DNA from: Deltaproteobacteria bacterium
Lineage (GTDB): Bacteria; Bdellovibrionota_C; UBA2361; SZUA-149; JADLFC01
DNA length: 64,000 nt
NCBI GenBank assembly: GCA_020845775.1
Contig: JADLFC010000116.1
Coordinates: forward strand, 7,710 to 71,709
Direction: 5' to 3'
Below are positions 1,537 through 59,799 of this stretch, piece after piece. The notes beneath the pieces are model-generated. The model ran no database searches and was not told the origin of the DNA. It saw nothing but the letters and a program-made list of their open reading frames with translations. Numbering within the stretch: position 1 is the stretch's first letter; each line of letters starts with the position of its first letter. The translations under genes and the position numbers were made by a program.

Positions 1537-1661
1537 TATACCATTTGCAAAAAGGATTTTTGTAAATGGTATAAACAGCAAGTGCGTAAGCACTTGCCAA
1601 TAAACAACAAATACCGTTTCCAAAAAGTAAAATATTTAACTTACTTTTTGGAAACGGTATA
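1537..1661. repeat. Composite triple-hairpin intergenic repeat, copy 1. Hairpin A is a 37-nt palindrome TATACCATTTGCAAAAAGG/ATTTTTGTAAATGGTATA; the central hairpin is GCAAGTGCGTAAGCACTTGC; hairpin C is a 50-nt palindrome ATACCGTTTCCAAAAAGTAAAATATTTAACTTACTTTTTGGAAACGGTAT
   Basis: Read directly from the sequence. Near-identical copies sit at 4545-4668 and, inverted, at 24199-24323. The element termini TATACC...GGTATA are inverted repeats of each other. Confidence 0.85.
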
Positions 1662-3484: not shown

Positions 3485-4327
3485 TCAAGTAGTGGCCTCA
3501 TCGACTTCAGCAAAGATCCCGTGTTTTACTCGCTCGTAATGATTTCTCCATTTTAAGGATCTATGCAGCACTTTGCTAGCATATTGCCGCACCGAAGACG
3601 GAATACTATGGACATTTTTTCCCACTTTGTCGACATTGCCTGGACCCCAGTTATAAGCAGCCAGCGCCATATAGCGATTGCCACGATATTGTTCTTCAAG
3701 CTTCTTAACATACTCTATGCCGAGCGAGATATTGGTTTCAGGATCGGTTAAGACTGGATAACTTCTTTTACCGGTAATTTGCCTAGACACCTCATGCGCA
3801 GTGTTTGGTAAAAGCTGCATCAAGCCCATCGCACCGGCTTTTGAACGCACCCTGGGTAAAAAACTACTCTCTACTGAAATTATCGCTGCAACATAAAAGG
3901 GATCTACTCGCCGTAAAGTGCTCTGCTCAACTATATGTTTAGCAATATGTGGGCTTTGAGTTACTCTTCGACCATAGGAACTAATGAGATCCGAAATATA
4001 AGCTATCTTTTTTAAATGCTCCCGATCGTAGCCCCCAAAACGTTTAAAATCGCGCACATCGTACGATGCATAATAGCGCTCATTTCGCATGAAAAAATCT
4101 GGCCTGTTAACTCCATAAGCCTTAGCCAGGTTTAGCTCCGAGTAATAACTACTACCATTGCGAAAAAACTCGGACACAAGACTAAAACCAAACACGCCAA
4201 CGAACACAAACCCTAAAATGGGCTTTCTTAGCGAAAAAACTATCTGCCACACCGTAAGGAAAACCGGCGGCCTCAGTTGTCTTATAAGTTCTGTTGGTAA
4301 ATAATCACCAAAATTGCTTTTTCTCAT
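3485..4327 (-). CDS. Lytic transglycosylase (SLT domain), membrane-anchored
   Basis: SLT motifs GAMGLMQLLP...TA and AYNWGPGNV; N-terminal transmembrane helix. Confidence 0.8.
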   Translation of the reverse strand: MRKSNFGDYLPTELIRQLRPPVFLTVWQIVFSLRKPILGFVFVGVFGFSLVSEFFRNGSSYYSELNLAKAYGVNRPDFFMRNERYYASYDVRDFKRFGGYDREHLKKIAYISDLISSYGRRVTQSPHIAKHIVEQSTLRRVDPFYVAAIISVESSFLPRVRSKAGAMGLMQLLPNTAHEVSRQITGKRSYPVLTDPETNISLGIEYVKKLEEQYRGNRYMALAAYNWGPGNVDKVGKNVHSIPSSVRQYASKVLHRSLKWRNHYERVKHGIFAEVDEATT

Positions 4328-4544
4328 AGAAAATTCCGCATTAGGAGTATAACCAGCACATCTTCCGTTTTACGAAACACATCCACGATAAATAGCCTGC
4401 TGAAACTAGCTTCCTTCTGTCACTCTACAATCTACATTTGTATAGTATAGCACGAATCGCTTGCGATTTGTCACATTTGCCATTTTTTTTATCTCAGTTT
4501 ACACTTAGCCGAGTAATTTCATGAACGTAAGCAAGCATTTTAGT

Positions 4545-4668
4545 TATACCATTTAGAAAAAGGATTTTTGTAAATGGTATAAACAGCAAGTGCGTAAGCA
4601 CTTGCCAATAAACAACAAATACCGTTTCCAAAAAGTAAAATATTTAACTTACTTTTTGGAAACGGTAT
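4545..4668. repeat. Composite triple-hairpin intergenic repeat, copy 2, upstream of mnmG
   Basis: Matches copy 1 (1537-1661) over about 124 nt, with a G-to-A difference in the hairpin A loop region. Confidence 0.85.
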
Positions 4669-4699
4669 AATATTTTTTGCAGTAATTACAACTCATAAA

Positions 4700-6601
4700 G
4701 TGAGCATTCAATCGAAGGGATTTGATATTTTGGTTATTGGAGCGGGGCACGCTGGGATAGAGGCGTCGTTAATGTCTGCACGCTTAGGCGCGAACGTCGG
4801 ACTGATAACTTTTAGCAAACGAAATGTCGGTCAAATGTCCTGCAACCCGGCAATTGGAGGCATTGGGAAGGGGCATCTCGTTAAAGAGGTCGATGCGCTA
4901 TTTGGCGAGATGGGAAGATTGATTGATGCCGCTGGCATTCAGTTTAGAATTCTAAATAACTCAAAAGGCCCAGCTGTGCGCTCTTCCCGCGCCCAAGCAG
5001 ACAAGCTGCTCTATCATCAACGCGCGCTTGCGAGAATAGAAAGTGTTCCGAATATTACAATCATAGAAGCTGAGGCTTGCGACATTAAACTTCGGGGCGA
5101 TTCTGTCTGTGGCATAGTTACCGATGCTGGAACTTTTATTCCCGCTAGAGCGCTAATATTAACTACCGGAACTTTTCTGGGAGGCTTGATGCACGTCGGA
5201 GCTGAACAGTTTAGGGGCGGGCGGATTAATGAACCAGCAAGTGATCGACTTAGCCAAGCTATTAAAAGCCTTGGTCTAAAGATGAATCGCTTAAAAACTG
5301 GCACTCCTCCACGCCTGTCGGCTTCGAGTATTGACGTATCAATTCTTGCTGCGCAACCAGGGGACAGTCCGCCGAAACCTTTTTCTTATCGCACTCGTTC
5401 AATTGAGCAGCCACAAATATGTTGTTGGCTTACACAAACAAATGAGCGCACGCATGAAATCATATATGACAACATTGCGCACTCTCCGTTGTTTAATGGC
5501 CAAATAAATTCAATAGGGCCGCGTTACTGTCCTTCTATTGAGGACAAAGTTTATCGCTTTAGGGACAAGTCGTCCCATCACATTTTTGTTGAGCCAGAAG
5601 GTTATAAATCGGATTCCATCTACCCGAATGGAATTTCAACGAGTTTGCCGCGAATCGTTCAGGAGCAAATTGTTCGCTCGATTAAGGGATTCGAGAATGC
5701 GAAATTTTTGCGCTATGGCTATGCCGTAGAGTACGATCACGTCGATCCTCAACAGCTCGAGCGAACTTTAGCCCCCAAAGATTTAAAGGGCCTGTACTTG
5801 GCGGGACAGATAAATGGAACCACTGGATACGAAGAGGCTGCTGCACAGGGTTTGGTCGCGGGCATTAATGCCGCGATGTATGTGATGGGAAGAGAACCCT
5901 TAGTTCTTGGACGCGATCAGGCATATATAGGCGTAATGATTGACGATTTAGTGTCTCGTGGCGCACCCGAACCTTATCGCATGTTTACATCGCGCTCTGA
6001 ATATCGCTTGTCCCTTAGAGAAGACAATGCAGACTCTCGTTTAACCCCGATAGCTCGACGACTTGGCCTAGTAGGCGATAGCGATTGGAAGCGTTTTACT
6101 GAAAAACAAGAAAGAATTGAAAGGGAAAGAGGAAGACTGGAAACTACATTTGTTGCGCCGGACGAAAGGACTAATATGTGGTTAACAGAACTGGAGACTG
6201 CTACCTTGTTAGATCGGATTTCACTGGCTTCTCTTCTGCGTCGACCAGAAATAGGATACTTGGATGTAGTTAGCCAATTCAGCCCAAGCTTTGAACTGAG
6301 GGAAGATGAGTGGCGAAAACTCGAAACGGAAATAAAATTTGCGGGCTACTTAGCTAGGGAAGAAGCTGAGCGGGCAAAACTAAAAAAAATGGAGGCGGTA
6401 AAAATTCCAGCTCACTTTGATTATAAAAGCCTAACTACCTTGAGCACGGAAATTCGCGAGCGTTTGTCTACAGTCAAACCAGCTACGCTAGGACAAGCCT
6501 CACATGTCTACGGCGTTACTCCGGCGGCACTTTCCATCATTGCCGTTCATCTCAAGCGCAGCGAGAGACAGAGCTCTGCGGCAGCAACTTTAAACGGATA
6601 G
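4700..6601 (+). CDS. mnmG: tRNA uridine-5-carboxymethylaminomethyl modification enzyme MnmG (GidA)
   Basis: FAD-binding start [14 protein letters not shown]; motifs CNPAIGG and [11 protein letters not shown]; 633 aa is typical for MnmG. Confidence 0.93.
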
Positions 6602-7814: not shown

Positions 7815-7927
7815 GTTGCCTTACCTCTGCTTCTCTCAGAAACTAACTCTAGCTAAACTAACTCTAAAGTATCAAGCACTATCACAAGATGCTCCAGATT
7901 AATATTGATAATTACCTATCGTATTAA

Positions 7928-9286
7928 TCAAGATAATTCTTTTTCGATCAAATCGATCACCTTATCCCCCCATTGAAAACTCAATGCCTTGGCTCGTTCG
8001 TGCGATAGCTCTTTTATTCGTTCCAGTTTGTATTTTCGGCCAGCTATAGAATCGAGCAGCTCGGCAAAATTCCCCACATGTTTCGCGTCGTAAAGTAACT
8101 CATCGTAGATGAGGATCTCGCGCATTTCGGGCGTATCGGGTGCAAGTATAGGCACCCCCGCACCTAGTGCCTCTAGCATCGCGTTAGAAGTCCCCTCATA
8201 TCTCGATGTGACAATAAAAACATCGCAACCAGCGATTATGTCTATTGGATCCTCCAACCAGCCAGTTAGAATAATTCTATCCAGTTGTCCATAGCCCGCA
8301 GCGATCGCTAATATTTTTGGCTTTTGATCCCCATCGCCGCAAATAATAAGCACCGGTTTTTCGCTGGCCGTAGCACCAAGAACTCTAATGATGTAATCGA
8401 TATTTTTTTGAACGTTAAGCTCCCCGCTAACTGCTAAAAATATGGATTTCTCTGGCAAGTGACACCTTCTCGCCAATTCTCGCTTGCGATTGCTAAAACC
8501 GCCTAGCCAGAGTTTCCAGCTCTTGTCGTCTACTCTCTCCTGCCAAACACTATAACCGCTAGCTGCTCGCGCATCTCGTTTCACAGGGCCTGGGGATATT
8601 TGTTGTTCAAATGCTTCTCGGGCAGATACTCCGATATCTGCCAAGTCACCATTTTTGCCAAAAGTATCGACATTGTTTGTTTTAGATATTGGTTTTGACG
8701 AACTGGCATTCTTCCTAGAATTTTCTATCAGAGCCTTGGGATAAACGATCGCATTCGGCAAAGTCACGACGCGCTCTGCTTTTATAAAAGGCTCATCTAT
8801 TAGCCTTTTTCTAATCAACTCAGAAACAACTACAACTTTTCTCGCACTAAGAACCCCAAAAAAATCCACCAAATTGCCGAGGCCGCGCAAAAATACCGAG
8901 CGATATGTAATCGATCGCAGTTCCCAAGGTACTGAGCGCAAAAAAAGCACTATTGGTGTTCTAGAGAAAAAACAACCCAGTTTTGCTAGCAAACTATAAA
9001 AGGCACTAAAAACCAGAACGGCAGTAAACTTCTCCGCTATCAGTATGCGCAATAGAGCTATAGGAAAAACAATGCTTACACAAAGCCAAAACCAAACCCC
9101 CTCAAACAGCTTCACAGGTAAATGAACGACATGAGGAACAAGCTTTTCATGCTTTTTCAATGCTAATGGTTGAGCAGATAAGTAATGAACCTCGTAGCCA
9201 TTCTCGAGCAAAGCCTCTACGAGTATAGATAGGCGTTTAAATATTCCTCCACGGACCTGGTGCGTAATAATAGTTATTACTTTCAT
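7928..9286 (-). CDS. Glycosyltransferase family 4 (GT-B fold)
   Basis: GT4/GT1 C-terminal signature EGTSNAMLEALGAGVPILAPD; N-terminal Rossmann half with embedded hydrophobic segments. Confidence 0.7.
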   Translation of the reverse strand: MKVITIITHQVRGGIFKRLSILVEALLENGYEVHYLSAQPLALKKHEKLVPHVVHLPVKLFEGVWFWLCVSIVFPIALLRILIAEKFTAVLVFSAFYSLLAKLGCFFSRTPIVLFLRSVPWELRSITYRSVFLRGLGNLVDFFGVLSARKVVVVSELIRKRLIDEPFIKAERVVTLPNAIVYPKALIENSRKNASSSKPISKTNNVDTFGKNGDLADIGVSAREAFEQQISPGPVKRDARAASGYSVWQERVDDKSWKLWLGGFSNRKRELARRCHLPEKSIFLAVSGELNVQKNIDYIIRVLGATASEKPVLIICGDGDQKPKILAIAAGYGQLDRIILTGWLEDPIDIIAGCDVFIVTSRYEGTSNAMLEALGAGVPILAPDTPEMREILIYDELLYDAKHVGNFAELLDSIAGRKYKLERIKELSHERAKALSFQWGDKVIDLIEKELS

Positions 9287-12887: not shown

Positions 12888-13030
12888 CCCACGATTATTC
12901 ACAGTATTTTTGTCAAAACCGTGAAAAAACTCTCTTTTGACACAGTCGCTACCTTAAGTATTAAGCGAACGTGGTTTTTTCTGGCAAACTGTGGCAATCG
13001 TGATATACCGTTTCTAAAAAGTAGGGGAAT

Positions 13031-18121: not shown

Positions 18122-21100
18122 TCATACCAACTCAATGTCTACTATTACCGGCAAATGATCTGAGGCAATTCTCGTTAGCTCATTGTGCGGCACGAAACTA
18201 TCAATTACCTTAATGCCCTCACTCACAAAGATATGATCGATGCGGCAAACCGGCCACTGAACATGCCAGGTATTGGAACCATTGCCAACCGACAGCGGAT
18301 AGCGCTCTAACGAACTCGAGTCCTCTTCTCCACTGTGCGCATCCACAAGCACTTCCTTAAACATTCTACACACCTTCGACCGCGGCGTGGCATTAAAATC
18401 TCCACATACTACGATTGGCCCTATACATTTTGGGTTTTTTACCCATCCTTTCCCCAGTAAACTTTCCGCCTGCAACTCCCGTTCTTTGCGCTCCAACCCC
18501 ATATGGGTATTGATTACCTGCAACTTAACTCCATTTCCAACATCAACTTCAACCCACAAAGCACCCCTGGGTTCTACATCCGCTCTCTTCACCTGTCGCG
18601 GCAATACGCCTGCCTTCTGAAGACTCATTGCGTACCTGCTTAAAATCGCATCGCCATAGCGCTCCTCCTTAACATGCATAGCAGGAGAAAAGTGAAATAC
18701 CATCTCGAGCTCATTAGCTATTGCCCGAGCCTGATCTAGGTGTTCAGAACGAGCTCTCCCGACATCGATTTCCTGTAACGCTATAATATCCGGTGAAAAT
18801 CTCTCGATAACCTTAGCAATCCTAGCAGGCGAAAGCTTCCCATCCATGCCTACGCACGAATGAACGTTATAAGTCATTACTCGAATAACGCGATTATTTC
18901 TCTTGCGCACTCGCCACACATCGCTAGTCGCCTCATCGACTGGCACTCCATGTAAATACCTATAGGCCTCCTTATATAGATCGCTAAATTTTAAATGCGC
19001 TCGACCCTCCTCTCCAATGTCAATTCCTCGCGGGAATATCCCAAATGCGTGCGTCTCCTCCGGGCCTGGCCCAGCATGCGAACCACTCTCTATGGGAAAT
19101 GACACCGTCTTAGCACCTAATCTCCAGCCAGAAATAACTAAATCGCCCGCTTCGCGATGATTACAATATTCGACGATGTCCTCCAATACATCTGAAAGAA
19201 ACGGATGCTGCTCTCCGAACACTACACTGCCATCGCGCGGTAGTTCGTACTCGCCAGCCTGATTGATTGCTAACACTTTGTCGCCAACCACAAACATTAC
19301 CAAAGGAACATGTGCCTCTCGCACAAGCCTTTGCGACATCGCCTTCTTCTCGACGAGAGACAACCTCTGCTTGCAATATATATTGCCTAGTGGGCCAAGA
19401 GCGGTAACGACAACTTTCTCGCCTTCCACCGCGCTAAAATCCCACTTGGGCTTTCTCAACAGCTTCTGCAACCAGCGGCCACCTATCCAACTTGCGCGAC
19501 CAAACAAAACGCTGTCGCGATATCTGCCGACCGCATTACTCGAAGTCTCCTTTGACGATACAACATCTTCACACAACTTCTTAACCGCCTCCTCAATACT
19601 TCTACCTTCCTCCTCAAGATAAGACACGGTATCTTCCTGCCCATGGTCTGAATATATCCACACCTCGTAGTCTCTGCGCGGCGATAGGCGCGCGGCGCGC
19701 CAGATACGTTTTATCGATGCATCAATCCCCTTAAGCGTCCAATATGCAAATTGAGAACTCGGTCCACGCCGATGCGCCTGTTCGTCATACCCCAAAAAGT
19801 TAACATGGATAACAGGCAACCCTCGAAAAGCATCCATAACCGCACCTGCCGTCACCATCTCGCGAAGCAGGATGCAAATTGCAACCCTCGTCGGAACAAA
19901 AACAATCTCCTTAAATAAATCCCTGCCTGCTATAAGTCCATTAACGCAATCCACTACTGCCAATACCGCCTCTATAAACATAAGCGCCAGGCATCTAATC
20001 ACAGTAACGCCATGCCAAATAGCTACGCCCAACAATTTCCAGGGATTTACCAGCTCAAAAACACTTCCCCACCCAAAGGCTGCCGGACAAAAACGCGCTT
20101 CAGCCGCCCCACCAGAATATATGTTAGAGCTCGAACTCCCTCCCTTCAAAAGCCCATCCCCAGCTTCCCGCAGACGCTTTTCTACAATCTCGGCACTAAC
20201 TGGATCTGACATCTTAAAAATTCGACCCAACTCTCTATCGAAAAACTCAAAACCAACAACTCCCATCTTCTGATTATAAAACAACTCGCCCTGAACGGAC
20301 GGCGTGCTAGAAGGCAAGCCAGAATATATGCTACGCAACTCATAACCTTGCTTCCTTACAAGGCGTCGCAAAAATCTTAGCTTTCCAGCATCACAAGCCT
20401 TCTCAAAGTTCGGGCGCGATAAACCATCTATTTGAATCATTATTAGCCCTGGCTTCGAGTCCGCATTAGTAGCGCACCACAACCCTAGCAGTTTGACCAT
20501 CAACTCCCCGCGACTAAACAGTATTCGCAGTTTGCGAATTTGGCGAACGATCTTGCGCACCCATCTCAAGCGAGAAAGAGTTGCAAAAAAGAATGCGTGC
20601 CTAAAAGCTTTTAGCGTTGTCTCTAGTAGCTCATATTCAACTTCTATTCTTCTCTGAGCCTCCGACCACGCGCTGTTATCAATGTCCTCTATCTTAGGCC
20701 CCTCGGTTAATAACTTCTCATACACATCTAAAACCCTAGCGGCACACCGCTCAATAGATAGAGACTGCGCTGTAGCTCTGGCGCCCACACTTAACGACAA
20801 ACGATTATCCACGTTACTAGCGCCAATGCGCTCAATCGCCGAACAAAACGCCTGCCTGTCCTGCCCACCTAACAAGAACCCATTTTCCCCAGTTCTAACT
20901 ATCTCGCGTACTCCTGGCGCATCAAGAGCCACGACTGGCACACCCGCCGCCATCGCCTCTGTAATGACCATCCCCTGCGTTTCAGATAGGGACGAAAACA
21001 CAAACACATCCATCGCGTGATAACTGTCAACTAGATCCTGACCCTCCAAGGAGCCCACACTATACAACCTATCCCCAAGTCTTGCCCGATTAAATATAGC

Positions 21101-21844
21101 CTCAGCTTCCTTTTTGCTTGGCCCATCTCCAACTAGCAGAAACCGAGCATGTGAATTTGTAAGACAAAACTTCTTTAGCGCTTCAACCAAGAATACTAAA
21201 TTTTTTTCCGGCGCTAATCTTCCAACATGGCCGACAACAAACGCATCAAGCGGTATTAAACGCCCCGCACGAAATCTTTTGCCATCGCCAGCCGCAAATC
21301 TCTCCACATCAACCCCAGTCGGAACGACTGCGATCGGAACTATCACACCGCGACTCAACAAAATCGCTTTGATGCTCTCGCTAGGCACGATGACCTGGTT
21401 GCAGAGATTTGCATATCCAGTAGCTAACTGAATTACAAACTCCTTCATCTCCGGGGAGTCCCCTGGAATATAATGGGTGTAGTGCTCGTACATGGTGTGA
21501 TGAGTAAACACCACCGGCACCCTGTGAACGGCAGCTATCCGAAGAGCTGTGTCTCCCAAAAGAAAGGGATGATGCGAGTGAATAATGTCTGGCTCGAATT
21601 CACTCACTGCGGCATACAGCGATGCGGAAATGGGTAACTTTACTGAGAAATCACTTCCATTAAAATTCTGAATGGCAGGAATGCGAATTACATCCTTCTC
21701 CTCAGCTGGAAGATTTGGAAATTCGGGAGCTAATATCAGCACCCTATGGCCCAGGCGCCGGTAGGAGTCCGCAAATTGGCTCACCGATCTTGCCACCCCA
21801 CCGACGTGTGGCAAATAAGTATTTGTAAGCATCAATATATTCAT
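18122..21844 (-). CDS. 1240-aa tri-domain fusion: N-terminal GT4 glycosyltransferase, central alkaline-phosphatase-superfamily (nucleotide pyrophosphatase/phosphodiesterase-like) core, C-terminal endonuclease/exonuclease/phosphatase (EEP) domain
   Basis: GT4 motifs LTNTYLPHVGGVARSV and ETQGMVITEAMAAGVPVV; AlkP/NPP-like motifs IMIQIDGLSRPNF, YSGLPSSTPSVQGELFYN and VWIYSDHGQ; EEP motifs MTYNVHSC, IALQEIDVG, VVCGDFNATPRS and SDHLPV. Confidence 0.7.
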   Translation of the reverse strand: MNILMLTNTYLPHVGGVARSVSQFADSYRRLGHRVLILAPEFPNLPAEEKDVIRIPAIQNFNGSDFSVKLPISASLYAAVSEFEPDIIHSHHPFLLGDTALRIAAVHRVPVVFTHHTMYEHYTHYIPGDSPEMKEFVIQLATGYANLCNQVIVPSESIKAILLSRGVIVPIAVVPTGVDVERFAAGDGKRFRAGRLIPLDAFVVGHVGRLAPEKNLVFLVEALKKFCLTNSHARFLLVGDGPSKKEAEAIFNRARLGDRLYSVGSLEGQDLVDSYHAMDVFVFSSLSETQGMVITEAMAAGVPVVALDAPGVREIVRTGENGFLLGGQDRQAFCSAIERIGASNVDNRLSLSVGARATAQSLSIERCAARVLDVYEKLLTEGPKIEDIDNSAWSEAQRRIEVEYELLETTLKAFRHAFFFATLSRLRWVRKIVRQIRKLRILFSRGELMVKLLGLWCATNADSKPGLIMIQIDGLSRPNFEKACDAGKLRFLRRLVRKQGYELRSIYSGLPSSTPSVQGELFYNQKMGVVGFEFFDRELGRIFKMSDPVSAEIVEKRLREAGDGLLKGGSSSSNIYSGGAAEARFCPAAFGWGSVFELVNPWKLLGVAIWHGVTVIRCLALMFIEAVLAVVDCVNGLIAGRDLFKEIVFVPTRVAICILLREMVTAGAVMDAFRGLPVIHVNFLGYDEQAHRRGPSSQFAYWTLKGIDASIKRIWRAARLSPRRDYEVWIYSDHGQEDTVSYLEEEGRSIEEAVKKLCEDVVSSKETSSNAVGRYRDSVLFGRASWIGGRWLQKLLRKPKWDFSAVEGEKVVVTALGPLGNIYCKQRLSLVEKKAMSQRLVREAHVPLVMFVVGDKVLAINQAGEYELPRDGSVVFGEQHPFLSDVLEDIVEYCNHREAGDLVISGWRLGAKTVSFPIESGSHAGPGPEETHAFGIFPRGIDIGEEGRAHLKFSDLYKEAYRYLHGVPVDEATSDVWRVRKRNNRVIRVMTYNVHSCVGMDGKLSPARIAKVIERFSPDIIALQEIDVGRARSEHLDQARAIANELEMVFHFSPAMHVKEERYGDAILSRYAMSLQKAGVLPRQVKRADVEPRGALWVEVDVGNGVKLQVINTHMGLERKERELQAESLLGKGWVKNPKCIGPIVVCGDFNATPRSKVCRMFKEVLVDAHSGEEDSSSLERYPLSVGNGSNTWHVQWPVCRIDHIFVSEGIKVIDSFVPHNELTRIASDHLPVIVDIELV

Positions 21845-21847
21845 CTA

Positions 21848-24133
21848 TCAGTTGATGTTACTTACGCTTAACTCTACACCGTTTGAACTACCTAAAAGTG
21901 TTATTGGTTCCTCGCCAGCAATGCAAACAATTATCTCGTTCGGCTCAGTCTGCCACTTCGCTTTCCAGGACACTCTAAGAGACATGCCTGCATTTATCAC
22001 ACGAACCTCAATTGTTCCAAACTTAGTCTGCGTCGGACCAAAAAACAACTCTCCTTCGGATAGAAGCCACTTCCTTGGCAAACCGCTACATAGTATAAGG
22101 CGGTCGCCTTCCTCGCGCACAAAACAGTTTTTCAGCATCAGTATCCATTCCGCCGCCGCCCATGCATGCTGCCCATCACCCATACATCCGCCCAAAGTTC
22201 TCGGATGTATTGCCTCTGGCCATTGTCCCGTCGGTGACGCCAAACGCGCAACATTCTCGACTAGCTCAAAAAAGCGACTATCTCCGGCCCTCAGCAACAC
22301 TTGCGCCACGTGAAGTGTTAGATACGCATTTAGGCCAGAGTGAATCATGTCTTGAAAAAAAGCCCCTCGAACAAAGCTCCTTTCCATTAAGCTATTTGCC
22401 GTTGCGAGTAACCGACTATCTTTTGCTGGCCAAAGTTCCAGGGGGTATCCAACTACTATTGAACCTATAGCGCCAGCATCCATTCGCCTGTGTGGCGATG
22501 CTGGAATGCCACTCTGCTGAGGATCGACTTTAAGCCAGCGGAAGCTCTCTTCTATGGCCTCCATCAGCAAATCTGCCTCAGCTCTCGTAGCCATTGACAG
22601 CTTGTCCATACCAACACTTTCAAGCATCACAGACGAACGGCGCAAACCTGCAACTGACCAAAAATTATCCCAATAGTAATAATCATTGGGGCCCAAATGT
22701 TCCGCACTGAATCCAGCCGGCAACAGCCCTGCATGTGGCACATTTTTTAACCTCCTTAAGCGTTTTCGCTCGATCCAGCGTGCCCCCTGTGCAATCGAAT
22801 CGACCCAATTGCCATTCAATGGATGTTTGGACAGCTCCAAATATCTATGCATTATCCATAGCACCTGGCCATTTGAATCCCACTCACCCGCCTGCGATAC
22901 AAAATACCCATCCCTGCTCTGTCTGGCCGGAAACGAATCTATTACGCGCCGCGCTTCGTCCAGCAATCCTATTGCCATCATGGCGTTAAGAATGAAAACA
23001 GCATCTCGAAACCAAAACCTCCTATATGTATAGGGGCCAGGATATACATCCCCGGGGGCATGGAGAATAAGAGTCCTCACCGCGCAATCGTAGAGATAGT
23101 TAAACAACTCATCGGGAACACTCATTCCCGCACAGCGGTTTAATCTTTCCTCCCATAAGGCATCCTCAACTTTAGCAAGACCTCCATTGGCCTTTGACAA
23201 ACTCATTCTCGCGGGTTCAAGCGGAACCATTACATTCACGGTGCGTAACTTCGATTCCTCTAACGAAAATAGCGCCGCTCCAGTAGCCATACCAACCTCG
23301 CACTTAATGGAATCTTTAGTATCGCTACCTGAACGCTTATCATGCAGACGATAGTACACATCTCCGGCTAAATAATCGGACAATAGATAGCTATCCGGCC
23401 TAGTGTCAAAAACCACTTTTCCATCACCGTTAATGAGCCACTCCTGCAAATCTTCACGCAATAAAATATCGTGGACAAAACTTATTCCCTCGGGATTATA
23501 TGGACGCACCGAGATAACTAGATTAGCAGAAGTGTCGCTAAGTGCGCGAATCTCCATGACACAATGCGTAACTTCCTGGATGACCATTACATTTACAAGC
23601 ACATCCAACCTAAGCCCATCTAATGAACTAGAGGTAGTTACAGCAACACCTCCTGAAATAAGTAGCTTTTGATTGACCTGCTCAAGTCTCGAAGGGATTA
23701 GCTCCGAACCATTATCAGCAATTACCCATGCGTCAATCGTCCAACTATCCCAAAATGGCATGACTAAACCCCGCGGGTCTATGACCGGAAGTTCCAAACC
23801 ATTTGGCAAGCCAACGGCCGTCCAATTGCGATGGCTCAGATTTACATGTGTAATCGAAAAGGCTCTGGGTATAAACGACTCGTCATGCGGATCGAACTGT
23901 CGCTCCACCCAGTAGGGCCATACCCAATCGAGATTGTGCTGAATTACTTTGGTGTTTATTAAGCCGCGAGCATGAAACACAACTCCAGCTCGCAATAATT
24001 CGAGAGGTTCAGCAACCTCAGACGGCTGCTGAAACCTGTGCAATTGGCCTAATACTGCAATCGGATCGATAAAACCACGAGCACGAGCTATCCTCTTAAC
24101 CACATATCGCCATGGTAACCATTTTAGCCACAT
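21848..24133 (-). CDS. (alpha/alpha)6-barrel glycoside hydrolase, GH63/GH15-like (glucosidase or glycosylglycerate-hydrolase-like)
   Basis: 761 aa; an N-terminal beta-rich region precedes a C-terminal six-hairpin region with GYFVSQAGEWDSNGQVLW and DYYYWDNFWSVAGL; 3-bp gap to the fusion gene downstream. Confidence 0.5.
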   Translation of the reverse strand: MWLKWLPWRYVVKRIARARGFIDPIAVLGQLHRFQQPSEVAEPLELLRAGVVFHARGLINTKVIQHNLDWVWPYWVERQFDPHDESFIPRAFSITHVNLSHRNWTAVGLPNGLELPVIDPRGLVMPFWDSWTIDAWVIADNGSELIPSRLEQVNQKLLISGGVAVTTSSSLDGLRLDVLVNVMVIQEVTHCVMEIRALSDTSANLVISVRPYNPEGISFVHDILLREDLQEWLINGDGKVVFDTRPDSYLLSDYLAGDVYYRLHDKRSGSDTKDSIKCEVGMATGAALFSLEESKLRTVNVMVPLEPARMSLSKANGGLAKVEDALWEERLNRCAGMSVPDELFNYLYDCAVRTLILHAPGDVYPGPYTYRRFWFRDAVFILNAMMAIGLLDEARRVIDSFPARQSRDGYFVSQAGEWDSNGQVLWIMHRYLELSKHPLNGNWVDSIAQGARWIERKRLRRLKNVPHAGLLPAGFSAEHLGPNDYYYWDNFWSVAGLRRSSVMLESVGMDKLSMATRAEADLLMEAIEESFRWLKVDPQQSGIPASPHRRMDAGAIGSIVVGYPLELWPAKDSRLLATANSLMERSFVRGAFFQDMIHSGLNAYLTLHVAQVLLRAGDSRFFELVENVARLASPTGQWPEAIHPRTLGGCMGDGQHAWAAAEWILMLKNCFVREEGDRLILCSGLPRKWLLSEGELFFGPTQTKFGTIEVRVINAGMSLRVSWKAKWQTEPNEIIVCIAGEEPITLLGSSNGVELSVSNIN

Positions 24134-24198: not shown

Positions 24199-24323
24199 TA
24201 TACCGTTTCCAAAAAGTAAAATATTTAACTTACTTTTTGGAAACGGTATATGTTGTTTATTGGCAAGTGCTTACGCACTTGCTGTTTATACCATTTACAA
24301 AAATCCTTTTTGTAAATGGTATA
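24199..24323. repeat. Composite triple-hairpin intergenic repeat, copy 3, in inverted orientation relative to copies 1 and 2
   Basis: Reverse complement of the 1537-1661 element: hairpin C comes first (24199-24250), then the central GCAAGTGCTTACGCACTTGC hairpin, then hairpin A (24287-24323). Confidence 0.85.
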
Positions 24324-24559
24324 AATACTAAACAATATCAAAGACTTCGACCACTGCCAATATTGACCATTGCCCTCTGCGCTCCTCACGCAAACTGCAT
24401 ATATATCAAGTAAATAGTGCTCTATGTCGAAACAGAGATAAGGGATACGAGTTTTGCACAAAAATCCAAACTCTAAAACGCGAGGCAATAGAGTCGAACG
24501 CCAAAAGCAGATACCACTGAGTAGCACTGTATTTATAGAAGAAGATAATATTAAGTCAC

Positions 24560-26122
24560 ATGTTTCCGTTTGAGGAATATATAGGGAAAATAATAGGTCT
24601 GTCGCCTGACTGCATCATACTCGTCTCGCTAGACGGCGTCATATTATATGCAAATCCAGCTGCATACAAACTACTAGAATACGATGCAAACGAGCTACAA
24701 GGAAGACATTTTACAGATGTCGCTCCATTAGAGCTCTTCCAAGGAACAAGCCTTGCGCACCTAATAGAAAAGGGCTCGGTGAACGGCCTATTTACTAACT
24801 ATCTTTCAAATGCTGGCAAAAAAATACCGGTTTCCCTAACCGGCGCGCCCATTATTGATGAGACAGGCAGCCTTGTAGCTCTTATTCTATACGCTAGAAA
24901 TATTCGCGAAATACAAGACATTCTGACGGCATTAGATGTATCTCGCTCTCTTAATGACAGCGTTGTAAACTCAGTTCCAACATCGCTAGTTGCACTCGAT
25001 GACAAGATGCAGGTTCTCTTTCACAACCCGAGTTTCTTTAATCTCGTAAAAGGCGTAAATCTTAAAGGCAGGAGTTTTCAAAGCATATTTTCATCGCTTC
25101 AACTCCTCTACGCACTTACAAATAGTATTGCCGAATCCAAGGAAATTCGCAGCATTGAGCTTACACACCCGACGATTTGCGGAGAAGCCACCAACCTAAT
25201 CTTAAGCGTATCTATCGTGCCCTTTCGCATCGACAAGGAAAAACGACATGACCCATTGTCATCTATGGCACGGCTGGAAATGAACATTCAGACACTGGTA
25301 GTAATCGACGACATTACTGAACAAAAACGAGCCTCTGAGCTTGAAGATCAGAGAAAGACGCTACAAAAAACGCTTTCATCGCTAGAGAAAATATTCGGAG
25401 TAGTTGGCCACGAACTGCGCACGCCCTTGGCAGGCATACGTGCAGCGAGCGAATATTTGATAATGATTCAGGATCAATTTAGCTCGGAAGCCCTTCCCTT
25501 CGTAAGATCGATACACAAAGAGATTCTAAACATGGGGCAGGTAGTAAACGATCTGCTCGAAGTTGCTCGACTAAACAGCGGAACAGCAAAGTGGACTTGG
25601 GGCGAAGTTCGTTTAGCAGAAATTTGCGAGAAAGCCATATGCGCTATTGGCGCGTTAGTCGACGAAGACAAAGTGAAGTTGATACTCGATATTAAGGATC
25701 CTGCCCTAACAATGTCTGGCGATGAAAACGCCTTATACAGACTTTTGATTAATCTATTAAACAATGCCCACAAGCACACTTCCTCTGGATCTATTACTAT
25801 AAGCCTCAACAGCGCCTGCGAGGAGCGCGCCAGCTGGATAATTCTAAGGATCGCCGATACTGGATGTGGAATATCGCCTGTCATCGCAGACAAACTAGGA
25901 GAAGAGTTTGCGCTAAACTCCGGCGTAGTTGGAGACAACTACATTAGGGGAAGTGGACTTGGACTCTCAATCTGCAAGGGAATAGCCTCTACGCATGGTG
26001 GCAAGATATTTGCAAAATCCGCAGTCGGCGCAGGTACCGAGATAACTATTTACCTGCGACAGGACTTAGCTGAACCGCTGAGTAACAAAGAAAAGACGGA
26101 CAAGCTGGAGATGTCACTATAA
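24560..26122 (+). CDS. Cytoplasmic sensor histidine kinase with PAS domain(s)
   Basis: HisKA H-box VVGHELRTPLAGI; HATPase N/G boxes LLNNAHKHT, IADTGCGI and GSGLGLSICKGIASTHGG; no transmembrane segments. Confidence 0.85.
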   Translation: MFPFEEYIGKIIGLSPDCIILVSLDGVILYANPAAYKLLEYDANELQGRHFTDVAPLELFQGTSLAHLIEKGSVNGLFTNYLSNAGKKIPVSLTGAPIIDETGSLVALILYARNIREIQDILTALDVSRSLNDSVVNSVPTSLVALDDKMQVLFHNPSFFNLVKGVNLKGRSFQSIFSSLQLLYALTNSIAESKEIRSIELTHPTICGEATNLILSVSIVPFRIDKEKRHDPLSSMARLEMNIQTLVVIDDITEQKRASELEDQRKTLQKTLSSLEKIFGVVGHELRTPLAGIRAASEYLIMIQDQFSSEALPFVRSIHKEILNMGQVVNDLLEVARLNSGTAKWTWGEVRLAEICEKAICAIGALVDEDKVKLILDIKDPALTMSGDENALYRLLINLLNNAHKHTSSGSITISLNSACEERASWIILRIADTGCGISPVIADKLGEEFALNSGVVGDNYIRGSGLGLSICKGIASTHGGKIFAKSAVGAGTEITIYLRQDLAEPLSNKEKTDKLEMSL

Positions 26123-26493: not shown

Positions 26494-26548
26494 CATCGAA
26501 CATCCCCAACCTCCAACTCAAAATGCATCTTGCCAAATGTCCCATGGA

Positions 26549-26836
26549 TTAAATAACTCTTTCTATGTCCCGGGCACCATGGATGACCCTAGCAATTTCA
26601 ACCGCGCCATCAGCATATCGATAAAAGACGACATAAGCGTTAACGGCAAAACTTCTTATGCCCGCAGCAATTTCCGGGCGCTCCCGCCCAATTAGCGGTT
26701 GAGATGCCAATAGTGTGAACTTATCAAGCAGTCGACTGATTACGCTATCAGCCGCATCGATACTGTCTTGTGCAATATAGAACCAGATTTCGTCAAGGTC
26801 GCTACGTGCGTGCTTAGCGATTACGAGCTTCGTCAT
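26549..26836 (-). CDS. parE: Type II toxin ParE (RelE/ParE superfamily)
   Basis: 95 aa; ParE-like pattern A..DL.EIW.YIA.DS...A; C-terminal VVFYRY...VEIARVIHGARD. Confidence 0.8.
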   Translation of the reverse strand: MTKLVIAKHARSDLDEIWFYIAQDSIDAADSVISRLLDKFTLLASQPLIGRERPEIAAGIRSFAVNAYVVFYRYADGAVEIARVIHGARDIERVI

Positions 26837-27126
26837 TTTGCTTGATTTTTTCTCAGCACCAATTGTTTACGGCCATCGGCCTTAATTTTTGCAAAAAGCT
26901 CCTTCAGCGACTCCTCGTCGTACTCTTCGCCCTCTCCATTGTCCAAAGACTCGAGACCAACTGCCACTTCATGACGAAGATCGCGCAAACGAATTTGTTT
27001 CAACTCGTCCTGCTCCTTTAGAAGGCGCAACCCCTCTCTGATTACCTCGCTAACGGAGTGGTACATGCCGCTCTCCAGCTTCTTGCTGATAAAGTCCCGT
27101 AGTTCAGGAGTTAGAGATATATTCAT
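26833..27126 (-). CDS. parD: Type II antitoxin ParD (ribbon-helix-helix)
   Basis: MNISLTPELRDFISKKLESGMYHSVSEVIREGLRLL matches the ParD RHH N-terminus; 4-nt ATGA overlap with parE. Confidence 0.8.
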   Translation of the reverse strand: MNISLTPELRDFISKKLESGMYHSVSEVIREGLRLLKEQDELKQIRLRDLRHEVAVGLESLDNGEGEEYDEESLKELFAKIKADGRKQLVLRKNQAK

Positions 27127-47681: not shown

Positions 47682-47695
47682 CCTGCCCAAACATT

Positions 47696-47747
47696 TATAC
47701 CATTTACAAAAAGTAAAATATTTAACTTACTTTTTGGAAACGGTATA
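47696..47747. repeat. Deletion derivative of the composite repeat: left half of hairpin A fused to right half of hairpin C, forming a 52-nt imperfect palindrome
   Basis: TATACCATTTACAAAAAG joined directly to TAAAATATTTAACTTACTTTTTGGAAACGGTATA; directly downstream of the RDD gene stop. Confidence 0.75.
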
Positions 47748-56413: not shown

Positions 56414-58342
56414 TTAGGAAAACATATAAGTAATATCGTCCCAGGGATGGCGATACAAAGTCTGTCTAAGGCGTTTTTGATCCATTACATGACCCACGAT
56501 ACCAATGGCTCTACCCACTACAAATAGGCCATTTAAAAATCCCAAGGCTACTATATCTGCTATCTCTTTTGCATCAAAAAGACCAGTTGATTCCAACATG
56601 TCTATGAAACTAACACCAACTGCTCCATCGACGTTCAATATTAATGTACCTTTTTTCTTTGTAGTAAATTTTTCAACTTCAATGGCATAATCGAGATACT
56701 TCGTGCTTGTGAAGTTTGCTCGCGCGAATTGCTTAATTAACTCGACGCGCTTATCAGGATTTTGTATTGACTTAACGCGATGCCCGATACCAGGAATCAC
56801 TTGCTCCTTCGCTTTCATCTCTTTGGCAAATTCCTCCGGAGATAGCCCTCGATCGCATGCATCTTTGAATGACTGGGCCGCCCCATCGATAGCACCTCCA
56901 AATAATGGGCCAATTGTGAGCATACCTGACGCCACTGCCGATACCAAATCCTTGCCAGCCCGCGCCGCAACAATTGCATTATGCGCACCAGAAACTGCTG
57001 GGCCATGATCTGCTACGACGACCAGCAACATGTCGATAAACCTCTTGGCGTAATCTGGCAGGTGCTTTTTAAACCATAATAATCCAATAGTTCCACCAAC
57101 CCCATATCCCTCCTCGATAACACGAGAGATTTCGCAACCACTATAAGTAAGTTCCTCGCCGCGATCGTCGGAAATTGTAGAAATAAAGCTCGTCGGCTTC
57201 CTTACTAATCCCTTTTGTTGCGCAACTTTAAGGTCTATAGGAACGGTAACAGGCGGTGGAACGGAAATTTCTTTAACCTCTCCTCTTGCAACTAGCTCCC
57301 GATAAACATCGTGAATTAACTCCCCAAATTCATCATAAGACCGAGGAACAATAGCTCCTGCCTTAGCTAGCGCTTTGTTTTTTTCTGATGCATTTTCTTT
57401 TTGCCTATCTGCCCGTGCGCCGGCATGGCCAAACTGAACCTCGCCTGGGAAAAGCCGAGAACAGGTTCCTACCACCCATGCCACGAGTGGCTTAGTAATT
57501 GCGTTCGCTCGAAGCGCTTCGGCTATTTCATATTCTCCCTCGCCACCAACTTCTCCGAGAAGCACCAACATCTTTATGTCGGGATTAGCCTCAAATCGCA
57601 GCAAATGGTCGACAAGCCTGGAGCCGGGATATCTATCTCCACCAATGGAAATACCCTCGTTTAGGGCTGGGAAAAACTGCCCATCAGCATTTTTGGGCCC
57701 GCACGCCAATGCCATGGCATTGTACATTTCATTGGACATCCCACCAGATTTAGAAACAAAGCCGACAAAACCAGGAACATGTAAATGAGTCTGTATGATA
57801 TTTTCTATAGATCCAGCCGTATTTCCGATCTTAAAACAGCCTGGCTTTATGCCACCAACTGTGGCGGGGCCGATGATCCATTTCTTCCTCGAATCTGCTA
57901 CGACTATGAGCTCCTTAGTCCTCCTCTCGGATATCCCCTCAGCAACGATAGCCACGGTGCGAATAGAAGGCTGTTCCAACGCCTCGCGCGAAGGCTGGTA
58001 CGCCGATCGAAATGATGCAAAGTTAATAAACACATCCGCACTGCGGTGGCGCTGAACGGCATCCTCGATAGAACGATAAATTGGTATAAAGATTTCCTTA
58101 CTGCCCCAAAAGCAGGTATGAATACCTGGCCTCGATGGATACACTATGGCTGCAACAGATGGGGTTTTTCGTCTACAGGCAAAATCGAAATCTAACATAC
58201 GCTGAATCGCAGCGGTTTGATAATTGTAAATGATTGCTTGCGTATCGCTAGTAAAAAGTTGATAGTCCGCAGTTGCAGAACTATCTTCTTCAGAAAATCC
58301 AGATGCCTCCGCTAAATTGCCAGCCATGTGCGACATAACCAT
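56414..58342 (-). CDS. aclA: ATP-citrate lyase alpha subunit (CoA-binding and CoA-ligase domains plus citrate-synthase-like domain)
   Basis: Near-collinear with the eukaryotic ACLY C-terminal region: IIGPATVGGIKPGCFKIGNT, SKSGGMSNE, GGDRYPGS, catalytic QFGHAGA, TVADHGPAVSGAHN, GIGHRVKS and LYRHPWDDI. Confidence 0.9.
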   Translation of the reverse strand: MVMSHMAGNLAEASGFSEEDSSATADYQLFTSDTQAIIYNYQTAAIQRMLDFDFACRRKTPSVAAIVYPSRPGIHTCFWGSKEIFIPIYRSIEDAVQRHRSADVFINFASFRSAYQPSREALEQPSIRTVAIVAEGISERRTKELIVVADSRKKWIIGPATVGGIKPGCFKIGNTAGSIENIIQTHLHVPGFVGFVSKSGGMSNEMYNAMALACGPKNADGQFFPALNEGISIGGDRYPGSRLVDHLLRFEANPDIKMLVLLGEVGGEGEYEIAEALRANAITKPLVAWVVGTCSRLFPGEVQFGHAGARADRQKENASEKNKALAKAGAIVPRSYDEFGELIHDVYRELVARGEVKEISVPPPVTVPIDLKVAQQKGLVRKPTSFISTISDDRGEELTYSGCEISRVIEEGYGVGGTIGLLWFKKHLPDYAKRFIDMLLVVVADHGPAVSGAHNAIVAARAGKDLVSAVASGMLTIGPLFGGAIDGAAQSFKDACDRGLSPEEFAKEMKAKEQVIPGIGHRVKSIQNPDKRVELIKQFARANFTSTKYLDYAIEVEKFTTKKKGTLILNVDGAVGVSFIDMLESTGLFDAKEIADIVALGFLNGLFVVGRAIGIVGHVMDQKRLRQTLYRHPWDDITYMFS

Positions 58343-58386
58343 TCTAGTGTTTCTCCGTCATAATAAATAACACAAGTGATGTTCAG

Positions 58387-59664
58387 CTAAACTGTCAAAG
58401 CCTTACTAACTATTTTTGTCATATGCAATTCCGGCCCGTAAACCTCCATCGGCAACCCTAGCTCAAGCCCAAGTTGCTGCATCTTTGAAAGACCCTCAAC
58501 ATAGTTTGGTCCTCCACGCCTGACATATATTTTGGCCTTAACTCGTTTCAGCGCTTCCGAATACTCCTTAATAGCTCGACAAATGCCATTAAATGTTTTC
58601 GCCACATCTGTGAAGTTCGCAATTCCACCGCCAATTAGCAGAATTTTTTCTCTACCCTTCGGATCTAACTCTTGCGTCATCAATCCAATAACAGTCCTCG
58701 CGTAATCATAAGTTTCTTCATCAGTTGGATTGCCGGAATATTCTCCGTAATTAGCGAGCTCCTCTCCATAGCCAAGGTCAACAACAGTATCGGCAAAGAT
58801 TACTGACGCGCCACCCCCGGCTACCATTGTCCAAACTCGCCCTTGTGGGTTTAACACCGTAAACTTTAGCGATGCGCCACTCTGAGCGTCTAGATGATTT
58901 ATATGGCGCTCCTCGTTAGTACTCAACCTACCAAACGGAGGAGGAAATGTAAGCCCAGCCCAAAGCTTTCCTCCTTCGAACTCTGCCGTGTCATCTAGTT
59001 TCGCTGCGAAATCCAAAACGACGATCCGACCATCTACAAACGCCAATGGGTTTATTTCAGCATAAGAGAATCCCGCAGCAACGTAGAGTTTATAAAGGGA
59101 TTTGATAAAGGACGCGATTACAGGCCTTCTTTCGACACCGATGTCTTTTAGTAGCTTTGAGTCTAAGTCAAGCGCATCTATATCATCAAAAACTTTCACC
59201 ACGATTTTTTCAGATATGCTATCCACATCGCCGATTTCAACCCCTCCTTGTCGAAAAAATAAAATCTCATCGCCTTCTCTGACAGAACGAATCGCCAAAT
59301 AATATTCGTACTTCACCTCATGTGGAACAAAACACTCTACGATAAAAGTATCCAATATACCTGTTATGCCATCAACCGCCACAGATTTATTCATATGTTC
59401 AAAAACCCATCGCACCACCTCGTCCCAACCTGCATTGAGCAATACTAAATTACTATTGCCTCGCCTTTTTATTAGTTGATCCGGTTTTGCAACCAGTTTG
59501 GAATTCAAAAGCCATGGATGCTCAGCTACGACAGCGTCGAGATCAGTCGCTGCGCTTAGCTGCACACAAGGATTAGCGACGAAACAATCAGTCGTTGAAA
59601 ATTCCCTAAAGTGCAAATCCAAAATCTTCTTCCCATCATATTCGCGAATTGATCGACTAGCCAT
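58387..59664 (-). CDS. aclB: ATP-citrate lyase beta subunit (ATP-grasp). The ORF extends to 59691; the start at MASRSIREY is preferred
   Basis: Matches the ACLY N-terminus: SIREYDGKKIL, VAKPDQLIKRRG, LNPQGRVWTMVAGGGASV, ELANYGEYSGNP and IGGGIANFT. Confidence 0.9.
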   Translation of the reverse strand: MASRSIREYDGKKILDLHFREFSTTDCFVANPCVQLSAATDLDAVVAEHPWLLNSKLVAKPDQLIKRRGNSNLVLLNAGWDEVVRWVFEHMNKSVAVDGITGILDTFIVECFVPHEVKYEYYLAIRSVREGDEILFFRQGGVEIGDVDSISEKIVVKVFDDIDALDLDSKLLKDIGVERRPVIASFIKSLYKLYVAAGFSYAEINPLAFVDGRIVVLDFAAKLDDTAEFEGGKLWAGLTFPPPFGRLSTNEERHINHLDAQSGASLKFTVLNPQGRVWTMVAGGGASVIFADTVVDLGYGEELANYGEYSGNPTDEETYDYARTVIGLMTQELDPKGREKILLIGGGIANFTDVAKTFNGICRAIKEYSEALKRVKAKIYVRRGGPNYVEGLSKMQQLGLELGLPMEVYGPELHMTKIVSKALTV

Positions 59665-59752
59665 TTGAGATCTACCTATAAAGATTTCCAAAAAAATAAA
59701 TACGCTAGCATGGATTTGCTAGGAAATCAAGAATTGTGGATAGGCTGGAAAA

Positions 59753-59789
59753 TATACCATTTACAAAAATCCTTTTTGCAAATGGTATA
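59753..59789 (-). terminator. Solo copy of hairpin A of the repeat family, positioned as a stem-loop 11 nt downstream of the cyclophilin stop
   Basis: TATACCATTTGCAAAAAGG/ATTTTTGTAAATGGTATA read on the minus strand, followed by TTTTCC; AT-rich stem, so terminator activity is uncertain. Confidence 0.45.
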
Positions 59790-59799
59790 ACTGCGCCTT

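Follow-up and report, generated by a model that had tools for sequence, protein, structure and literature searches.

A TA-bounded composite triple-hairpin repeat in a Bdellovibrionota-like MAG, probably a family of non-autonomous inverted-repeat transposons

The window, by which we mean the whole 64-kb stretch of DNA analysed here, carries dnaX and ybaB near its start, mnmG a little further on and, towards its middle, a gene for a PAS histidine kinase. Beside these genes lie three composite copies of a 125-nt repeat, each made of three hairpin-forming modules that we call A, B and C (Table 1). The first two copies share 98% identity, and the inverted third is complementary to each of them at 93%. 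With three partial members, the window therefore holds three copies at 93–98% identity plus three incomplete ones, where the chance expectation is 0. The G+C content is 45%, and the MnmG of the window is 100% identical to MCC6221018.1, which is encoded on a 72.5-kb contig of a MAG that bears the label ‘Deltaproteobacteria bacterium’. Identity falls to 61–62% for the next-best MnmG proteins, several of which carry the labels Bdellovibrionota, Bdellovibrionales or Oligoflexia; judged by this one protein, the host MAG appears to be nearest to Bdellovibrionota/Oligoflexia.

Table 1 Copies, modules and short forms of the repeat, with positions in the window unless a contig is named.
Feature	Position	Strand	Description
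Composite copy 1	1537-1661	+	TA, 121-bp core (1539-1659), TA; dnaX (3-1529) on one side, ybaB (1714-2037) on the other
Module A of copy 1	1537-1573	+	37-nt hairpin of two inverted terminal-repeat copies; 17-bp stem, 3-nt loop
Module B of copy 1	1578-1597	+	GC-rich 8-bp stem, GTAA loop (GCAAGTGC-GTAA-GCACTTGC)
Module C of copy 1	1611-1660	+	perfect 20-bp stem, asymmetric 10-nt loop
Composite copy 2	4545-4669	+	between an SLT-domain gene (3485-4327, -) and mnmG (4700-6601, +)
Composite copy 3	24199-24323	-	between a 761-aa ORF (21848-24133, -) and the PAS histidine kinase gene (24560-26122, +)
52-nt hybrid (putative deletion derivative)	47696-47747	+	A-type left arm joined to C loop and C right arm at a common CAAAAAG core
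Solo module A	59753-59789	-	identical to module A of copy 1; between an ATP-citrate-lyase subunit gene and a cyclophilin gene
Half-arm remnant	13004-13023	+	single decayed C-type arm (TATACCGTTTCTAAAAAGTA), directly upstream of a periplasmic-binding-protein gene starting at 13031
Loci of the T preceding TATACC	1534-1537, 4542-4545, 24323-24326, 47693-47696, 59789-59792; contig L001 7826-7829		[G/T]TTA-TACC

An earlier note, made from the letters of this DNA, had described the three full copies. All of them are present at the sites given there, with the small correction that copy 2 ends at 4669 rather than 4668 and is hence also 125 nt long; the 52-nt hybrid, the solo module A and the half arm had been overlooked. 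The neighbours named in the note likewise hold for dnaX, mnmG and the histidine kinase, while the label ‘glycoside hydrolase’ for the 761-aa ORF beside copy 3 finds no backing, as this ORF has no Pfam match.

When single strands of each copy are folded as DNA, three hairpins form every time (-41 to -49 kcal/mol, z -12.8 to -15.9), which bears out the triple-hairpin description; folded as RNA, the element reaches -63.5 kcal/mol (z -12.8). Module A had been taken for a perfect 37-nt palindrome, and in copy 3 it is one; its arms differ by one G/A in copy 1 and at two positions in copy 2. Module B, correctly recognised as a central GC-rich 20-nt hairpin, is unchanged in sequence across all three full copies. 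Module C was said to be a perfect 50-nt palindrome, which is true of its stem but not of its non-palindromic 10-nt loop, and its arms are a variant of those of module A (TACCGTTTCCAAAAAG vs TACCATTTGCAAAAAG). Copy 3 does lie on the minus strand, although it is not a simple inversion of the other two: relative to copies 1 and 2, its C loop is exactly reverse-complemented (AATATTTAAC vs GTTAAATATT), with the orientation of modules A and B kept. The termini TATACC...GGTATA are inverted repeats as proposed, the outer 18 nt matching at 16 of 18 positions (TATACCATTTGCAAAAAG / TATACCGTTTCCAAAAAG; TATACCATTTGCAAAAAG vs the reverse complement of CTTTTTGGAAACGGTATA). Each module was also searched separately, allowing up to 3 mismatches and using dinucleotide-preserving shuffles as control, and every one recurs well above the shuffle expectation of 0.00–0.04 matches.

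The 125-nt element is non-coding. It has no start-to-stop ORF of its own and is crossed by read-through ORFs only, among them the two minus-strand ORFs pointed out before, both of which exist; one minus-strand frame is open across its full length. The intergenic position first claimed for the full copies extends to all six loci in the window, even though ORFs of at least 100 aa cover about 94% of it, a distribution that fits selection against insertions into genes. At window positions 4644-4671, the right terminus of copy 2, together with the hairpin C loop and two bases of the flank, spells a near-consensus promoter, TTAACT-16-TATAAT.

Among the shorter forms, the 52-nt hybrid keeps both outer termini and both flanking TA dinucleotides and is what would remain if a composite lost the DNA between its two CAAAAAG cores. 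A second hybrid occurs in a related strain (contig L001, 7829-7868), where an A left arm and A loop are joined to a C right arm; it corresponds to the product expected of a deletion between two CTTTTTG cores, again with the outermost repeats and the flanking TA preserved. This L001 region (7829-8076) lies just upstream of the position at which the window starts and contains, upstream of dnaX, a small SRP RNA gene (RF00169, 45.6 bits, 7913-8008), flanked by the hybrid hairpin and, on the other side, by a decayed fragment of the repeat (8040-8076). The fragment, 92% identical to the element, covers the right-hand half of hairpin B and continues into the left arm of C; old, decayed copies thus coexist with young, identical ones.

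Several other genes of the window deserve mention in their own right. Two adjacent genes on the minus strand (56414-59691) encode ATP-citrate lyase subunit domains (Citrate_synt + Ligase_CoA; ATP-grasp_2 + Citrate_bind), a pair that is unexpected in a Bdellovibrionota-like MAG. A 1240-aa ORF (18122-21844, -), next to the 761-aa ORF mentioned above, fuses a GT4 glycosyltransferase, a type I phosphodiesterase and an Exo_endo_phos domain. At about 26500-27100 on the minus strand, between a response regulator and the next operon, lies a ParE toxin / ParD antitoxin pair (95 and 97 aa; matching contig L105).

To compare strains, we used public assemblies of other sequencing runs, retrieved via the YbaB protein of the window; the retrieved contigs are 99.1–99.7% identical to it. 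Two of them, L001 and L002, represent strains that are about 99% identical and encode an identical YbaB, and in both the dnaX-ybaB spacer lacks copy 1. The empty site reads ...TAGGGT-TA-AGCG..., the filled site of the window ...TAGGTT-TA-[TACC...GGTA]-TA-AGCG.... In the BLAST alignment, the one TA at L001 9947-9948 aligns with window positions 1537-1538 and also with 1660-1661, which makes the net insertion 123 bp, that is, the 121-bp core plus one TA. A single TA in the empty site against a TA on either side of the core fits a TA target duplication, although this lone empty site is equally compatible with insertion 3' of TTA without any duplication. An empty site of the kind that the earlier note suggested looking for in related genomes thus exists for copy 1, and the family appears from these alignments to be recently active, with mobility between near-identical strains.

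Contig ends illustrate how frequent the repeat is. Contig L003, which is 100% identical to the window, starts within hairpin C of copy 1 and ends within hairpin A of copy 2. Short-read contigs of other samples or strains end within copies 1, 2 and 3, the hybrid and the solo module A, with contigs from four other samples breaking inside copy 3. Yet another C hairpin, in which one contig begins, lies about 100 nt upstream of fliH, some 690 nt after the last base of the window. So many contigs ending in the repeat indicate that it is common enough to fragment short-read assemblies of this organism and that it is genuine and no product of misassembly in the MAG contig.

Further copies emerged when the minus-strand translation of the element was used as a protein query. 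Three proteins, MCC6220726, MCC6220975 and MCC6221548, carry this translation at 88–100% identity between unrelated flanks, and in each of them the C loop is oriented as in copies 1 and 2. Because their accessions bracket that of the MnmG protein (MCC6221018) and two of the three are tagged IT291_, we assign them to this MAG, on contigs other than that of the window. When the 42-aa translation was run exhaustively with HMMER against 1.84 billion representative proteins, these three MAG proteins were the only matches; by that route, the composite is undetectable elsewhere. Whether copies extend beyond the window had been raised in the earlier note as bearing on mobility, and they do: with the one just past the window end and the three on other contigs, the MAG has at least 7 loci in about 65 kb plus 3 copies elsewhere. 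In one of the three proteins (P0003, MCC6220975.1), an ORF for a DUF2723 membrane protein reads directly into a copy of the element at the contig end; the element here either interrupts the DUF2723 gene or marks a misjoin in the contig.

The part of the repeat that reaches beyond this MAG is its end. Other MAGs and cyanobacteria have repeats whose interiors are unrelated but whose ends are formed by the same terminus of about 20 nt (TATACCRTTTNCAAAAAGTA). Scanning one genome per species (596 Gb) with the pattern TATACCRTTTNCAAAAAGKA gave 86 loci, about 58 of which are inside ORFs and represent chance or conserved coding matches (e.g. a Bacillaceae gene and SusC-like genes), while many of the 28 intergenic loci are genuine repeats. 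A partner terminus (up to 3 mismatches, within a few hundred bases) is far commoner than expected by chance, and the far end, which was no part of the search pattern, is then followed by TA in 8 of 9 such elements. The MAG SJ607 (‘Deltaproteobacteria bacterium’, JADZAE01, 44% G+C) has seven loci in which the terminus opens mosaic arrays of modules, each module either bounded by TATACC...GGTATA or forming a hairpin of its own, which suggests repeated nested insertion at TA borders. These arrays (L007, L020, L021, L035, L042, L072 and L082) are long, and whole modules are present or absent between copies. A second MAG, OZ241737, has three loci with elements of 163–175 nt that have plain 21-nt terminal inverted repeats and a hairpin at neither end. 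Its chromosome (OZ241737.1; L037, L039, L058) is labelled Paracoccaceae; at 44–46%, its G+C content is far below that usual for Paracoccaceae, and the label may be wrong. Elements with the shared terminus also occur in the cyanobacteria Dactylococcopsis, Symploca and Trichodesmium (cyanobacterial loci with the terminus include L009, L015 and L077), and a Leptospirales MAG (L033) carries two in tandem with one TA in common. Since the repeats of OZ241737 and the cyanobacteria are plain terminal repeats, the conserved part is a sequence and not a hairpin; across the families, what seems to be conserved is the end sequence of about 20 nt, and neither the interior nor a terminal hairpin.

Other collections gave no further members of the family. 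A metagenome scan with the 19-nt C arm produced 15 matches, all of them chance or coding, a scan of viral contigs yielded conserved phage coding matches only, and BLASTN of the whole element against plasmids gave nothing better than E of about 1. Two cyanobacterial plasmid matches were inspected and turned out to be due to chance. A literature search with exact strings from the termini retrieved no papers.

A transposase was sought in several places. None was found in the window, either by Pfam on its ORFs (among which there is also no Y1_Tnp domain) or in the precomputed Pfam matches of corresponding contigs. The regions around terminus matches in other genomes, about 0.9 Mb of retrieved loci and the plasmid and viral collections likewise yielded none. 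Clustering the ORFs within 2.5 kb of terminus matches gave housekeeping clusters only, and Pfam on 10 candidate neighbours of such matches detected no transposase. A 4.1-kb interval between two opposed termini in Symploca (L011) was considered as a candidate and rejected, as it is not an insertion sequence. For comparison we turned to ISY100, an IS630-family element for which about 24–30 bp per end suffice and TA is always duplicated (PMC2170065). By eye, the termini of the repeat resemble the ends of ISY100 (TA..GTTTC.AAA.AAAG). In an anchored alignment with its IRL and IRR (taken from PMC2170065 and plasmid pSYSG), however, they score like shuffles (P 0.06–0.3), ISY100 being the sole IS630 member compared, and its DDE domain has no tblastn match in the DNA retrieved for this analysis. 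With both comparisons negative, an IS630 attribution draws on the TA target alone. Of the Tc1/IS630-type TA duplication proposed earlier, the TA target thus agrees with the empty site, while the link to IS630/Tc1 is tentative and the resemblance to ISY100 ends does not exceed chance.

Taken together, we consider it probable (roughly 0.65) that the repeat represents non-autonomous inverted-repeat transposons, a MITE family mobilised in trans by a transposase that targets TA; an IS630/Tc1-like enzyme is the leading guess for the latter. This reading brings together the inverted repeats, the precise insertion at strain level, the dispersed copies, the deletions that keep the ends, the tandem and nested TA arrangements and the occurrence of the same ends on unrelated interiors. 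It also agrees with the earlier note, in which a MITE was among the options, and the empty site in near-identical strains and the terminus shared with classical MITEs elsewhere now speak for it. Among bacteria, MITEs shorter than 200 bp whose termini carry TA form an established class (PMC2229807). On this reading, the present repeat is a new family within a well-known kind of element, with an unusual composite build, and no new type of system.

The mobile unit would be the 121-bp core TACC...GGTA between two TA dinucleotides, of which the empty site has one. In this cut-and-paste route, a transposase encoded elsewhere in the genome would bind the double-stranded terminal repeats, excise the element and paste it into a TA, which would then be duplicated. 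Modules A and C can each be seen as little beyond two back-to-back terminal repeats, flanking a 37-nt spacer with hairpin B, and it is the outermost pair of terminal repeats that would define the moving unit. The triple-hairpin appearance follows from this back-to-back construction. The short forms (the 52-nt hybrid, the L001 hybrid and perhaps the solo module A) would have arisen by internal deletions at the repeated CAAAAAG/CTTTTTG cores, and the flipped C loop of copy 3 by inversion between the 20-bp arms. Two observations sit less well with a MITE. A solo element of 37 nt would be hard to move physically if the transposase must pair both ends, which counts against this reading. In addition, the base preceding TATACC is T at all six family loci ([G/T]TTA-TACC), with no conservation at the mirror position after GGTATA, an asymmetry that is unexpected under a symmetric TA target and slightly favours movement as single-stranded DNA.

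In that alternative, which we regard as unlikely, a Y1/HUH transposase (of the IS200/IS605 type, yielding PATE-like elements, or a RAYT acting on REPIN-like doublets) recognises hairpins A and C and inserts the element 3' of TTA without duplication. A conserved left and a variable right flank are what insertion 3' of a fixed target predicts, both ends are strong hairpins with related stems, and the sole empty site fits equally well; the SJ607 repeats form mosaic, BIME-like arrays, and a DDE transposase was found neither in the window nor in the neighbourhoods of terminus matches. The arms are non-palindromic, however, and the stems perfect and AT-rich, so that the short, bulged, imperfect hairpin that confers strand specificity is missing. 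The families of OZ241737 and the cyanobacteria moreover use the 20-nt sequence as a plain inverted repeat with no end hairpins, the far-end flank is TA in 8/9 elements, the C loop flips without any other change, and the window ORFs lack a Y1_Tnp domain. A broader variant of the MITE reading, possible but doubtful in our view, is that the TATACCRTTTNCAAAAAGTA terminus defines an ‘orphan’ superfamily of TA-associated miniature elements across phyla, with a transposase that either belongs to a type so far unconnected with these ends or acts from a distant locus, much as for the Correia elements, which have no assigned enzyme. Such a superfamily may span the Bdellovibrionota-like MAG, SJ607, OZ241737, filamentous cyanobacteria and the Leptospirales MAG; in the Bdellovibrionota-like lineage, it may have given rise to near-pure terminal-repeat units, the palindromes of 37 and 50 nt being almost wholly terminal repeat and combined into a composite.

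Less probable still is that the repeat is mainly a functional structured element (a terminator or insulator, a mobile promoter or a small RNA) kept by selection, with its spread being secondary. The very stable RNA fold given above, the GNRA-type loop GTAA of hairpin B and the purely intergenic placement would suit such a role, yet the last is equally explained by selection against insertions into genes, and the copies are too alike for any covariation that could support an RNA structure. Copies 1 and 2 receive an intrinsic-terminator call on the C-to-A (minus) strand, made up of hairpin C and the TTTGTTGTTT that follows it; the motif is absent in copy 3 and in no copy lies downstream of a co-oriented gene. 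The promoter-like string formed by the right end and flank of copy 2 is located 29 nt upstream of mnmG. Against function stand Rfam 15, which has 0 matches in the window at gathering score and only generic (miRNA-like) hairpins below threshold, and the dispensability of copy 1, which is missing from the ~99%-identical strains. Effects at the RNA level or on promoters may possibly be by-products, as in the Correia elements of Neisseria, which may contain promoter elements directed outwards. That the repeat stems from misassembly or from a chimeric MAG contig, finally, is hardly credible: misjoins at repeats do occur in MAG contigs, and P0003 runs from the DUF2723 gene into the element at a contig end, but independent Logan assemblies from at least 6 sequencing runs show identical ends of the element at identical sites, one Logan contig being 100% identical to the window over 2.9 kb.

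Known systems close in kind to the MITE that we favour include the Correia/NEMIS elements, which are about 100–155 bp long, non-coding, mostly intergenic and present in many copies, with terminal inverted repeats of about 24 bp, TA at the termini and target, a long hairpin fold and length variants that differ by an internal segment (PMC2229807). Compared by description and not by sequence, the triple-hairpin repeat is like them in size, in being non-coding, intergenic and multicopy, and in its TA ends. Correia elements are restricted to Neisseria, however, and are not built of two back-to-back terminal-repeat palindromes around a GC hairpin. To our knowledge, no transposase has been identified for them. 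RUP of Streptococcus pneumoniae, by contrast, has a matching insertion sequence and is mobilised by IS630-Spn1, whereas the search for such a partner of the present repeat was negative, and its termini show no significant similarity to ISY100 ends. Non-coding and 107 bp long, RUP itself uses TA as its insertion site, and its terminal repeats point to a TA-duplicating transposase (PMC2229807).

Two further classes share the look of the repeat more than its construction. REP, BIME and REPIN sequences are likewise abundant intergenic palindromic repeats that form mosaics and inverted doublets with long hairpins, and a REP/BIME-like repeat had been one of the earlier suggestions. A REP unit, however, is an imperfect palindrome with a conserved 5' GTAG and is species-specific, whereas the 18-nt arm TATACCRTTTNCAAAAAG of the triple-hairpin repeat is not self-complementary, starts with TATACC and has no GTAG, and its terminus recurs across phyla as a plain terminal inverted repeat; we therefore do not follow that suggestion. 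PATEs, miniature derivatives of IS200/IS605, are similar in that they are small, code for no protein, have hairpins close to both ends and insert beside a short conserved target. The ends of IS200/IS605 have no inverted repeats, though, and their hairpins are short, imperfect and strand-specific, while the outer 18 nt of the present element are inverted repeats and related families do without end hairpins.

The density of the repeat (about 7 loci per 65 kb) means that short-read assemblies of the host break every few kilobases. As it differs between strains that are about 99% identical, the repeat is useful for telling strains apart and has recently been a source of change in regulatory regions, examples being the spacer within the dnaX-ybaB-recR cluster and the region upstream of mnmG. 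The TATACC...CAAAAAGTA terminus, found on unrelated miniature elements in distant phyla, offers a sequence handle for finding the transposase; otherwise, the finding adds one family to the known class of bacterial MITEs.
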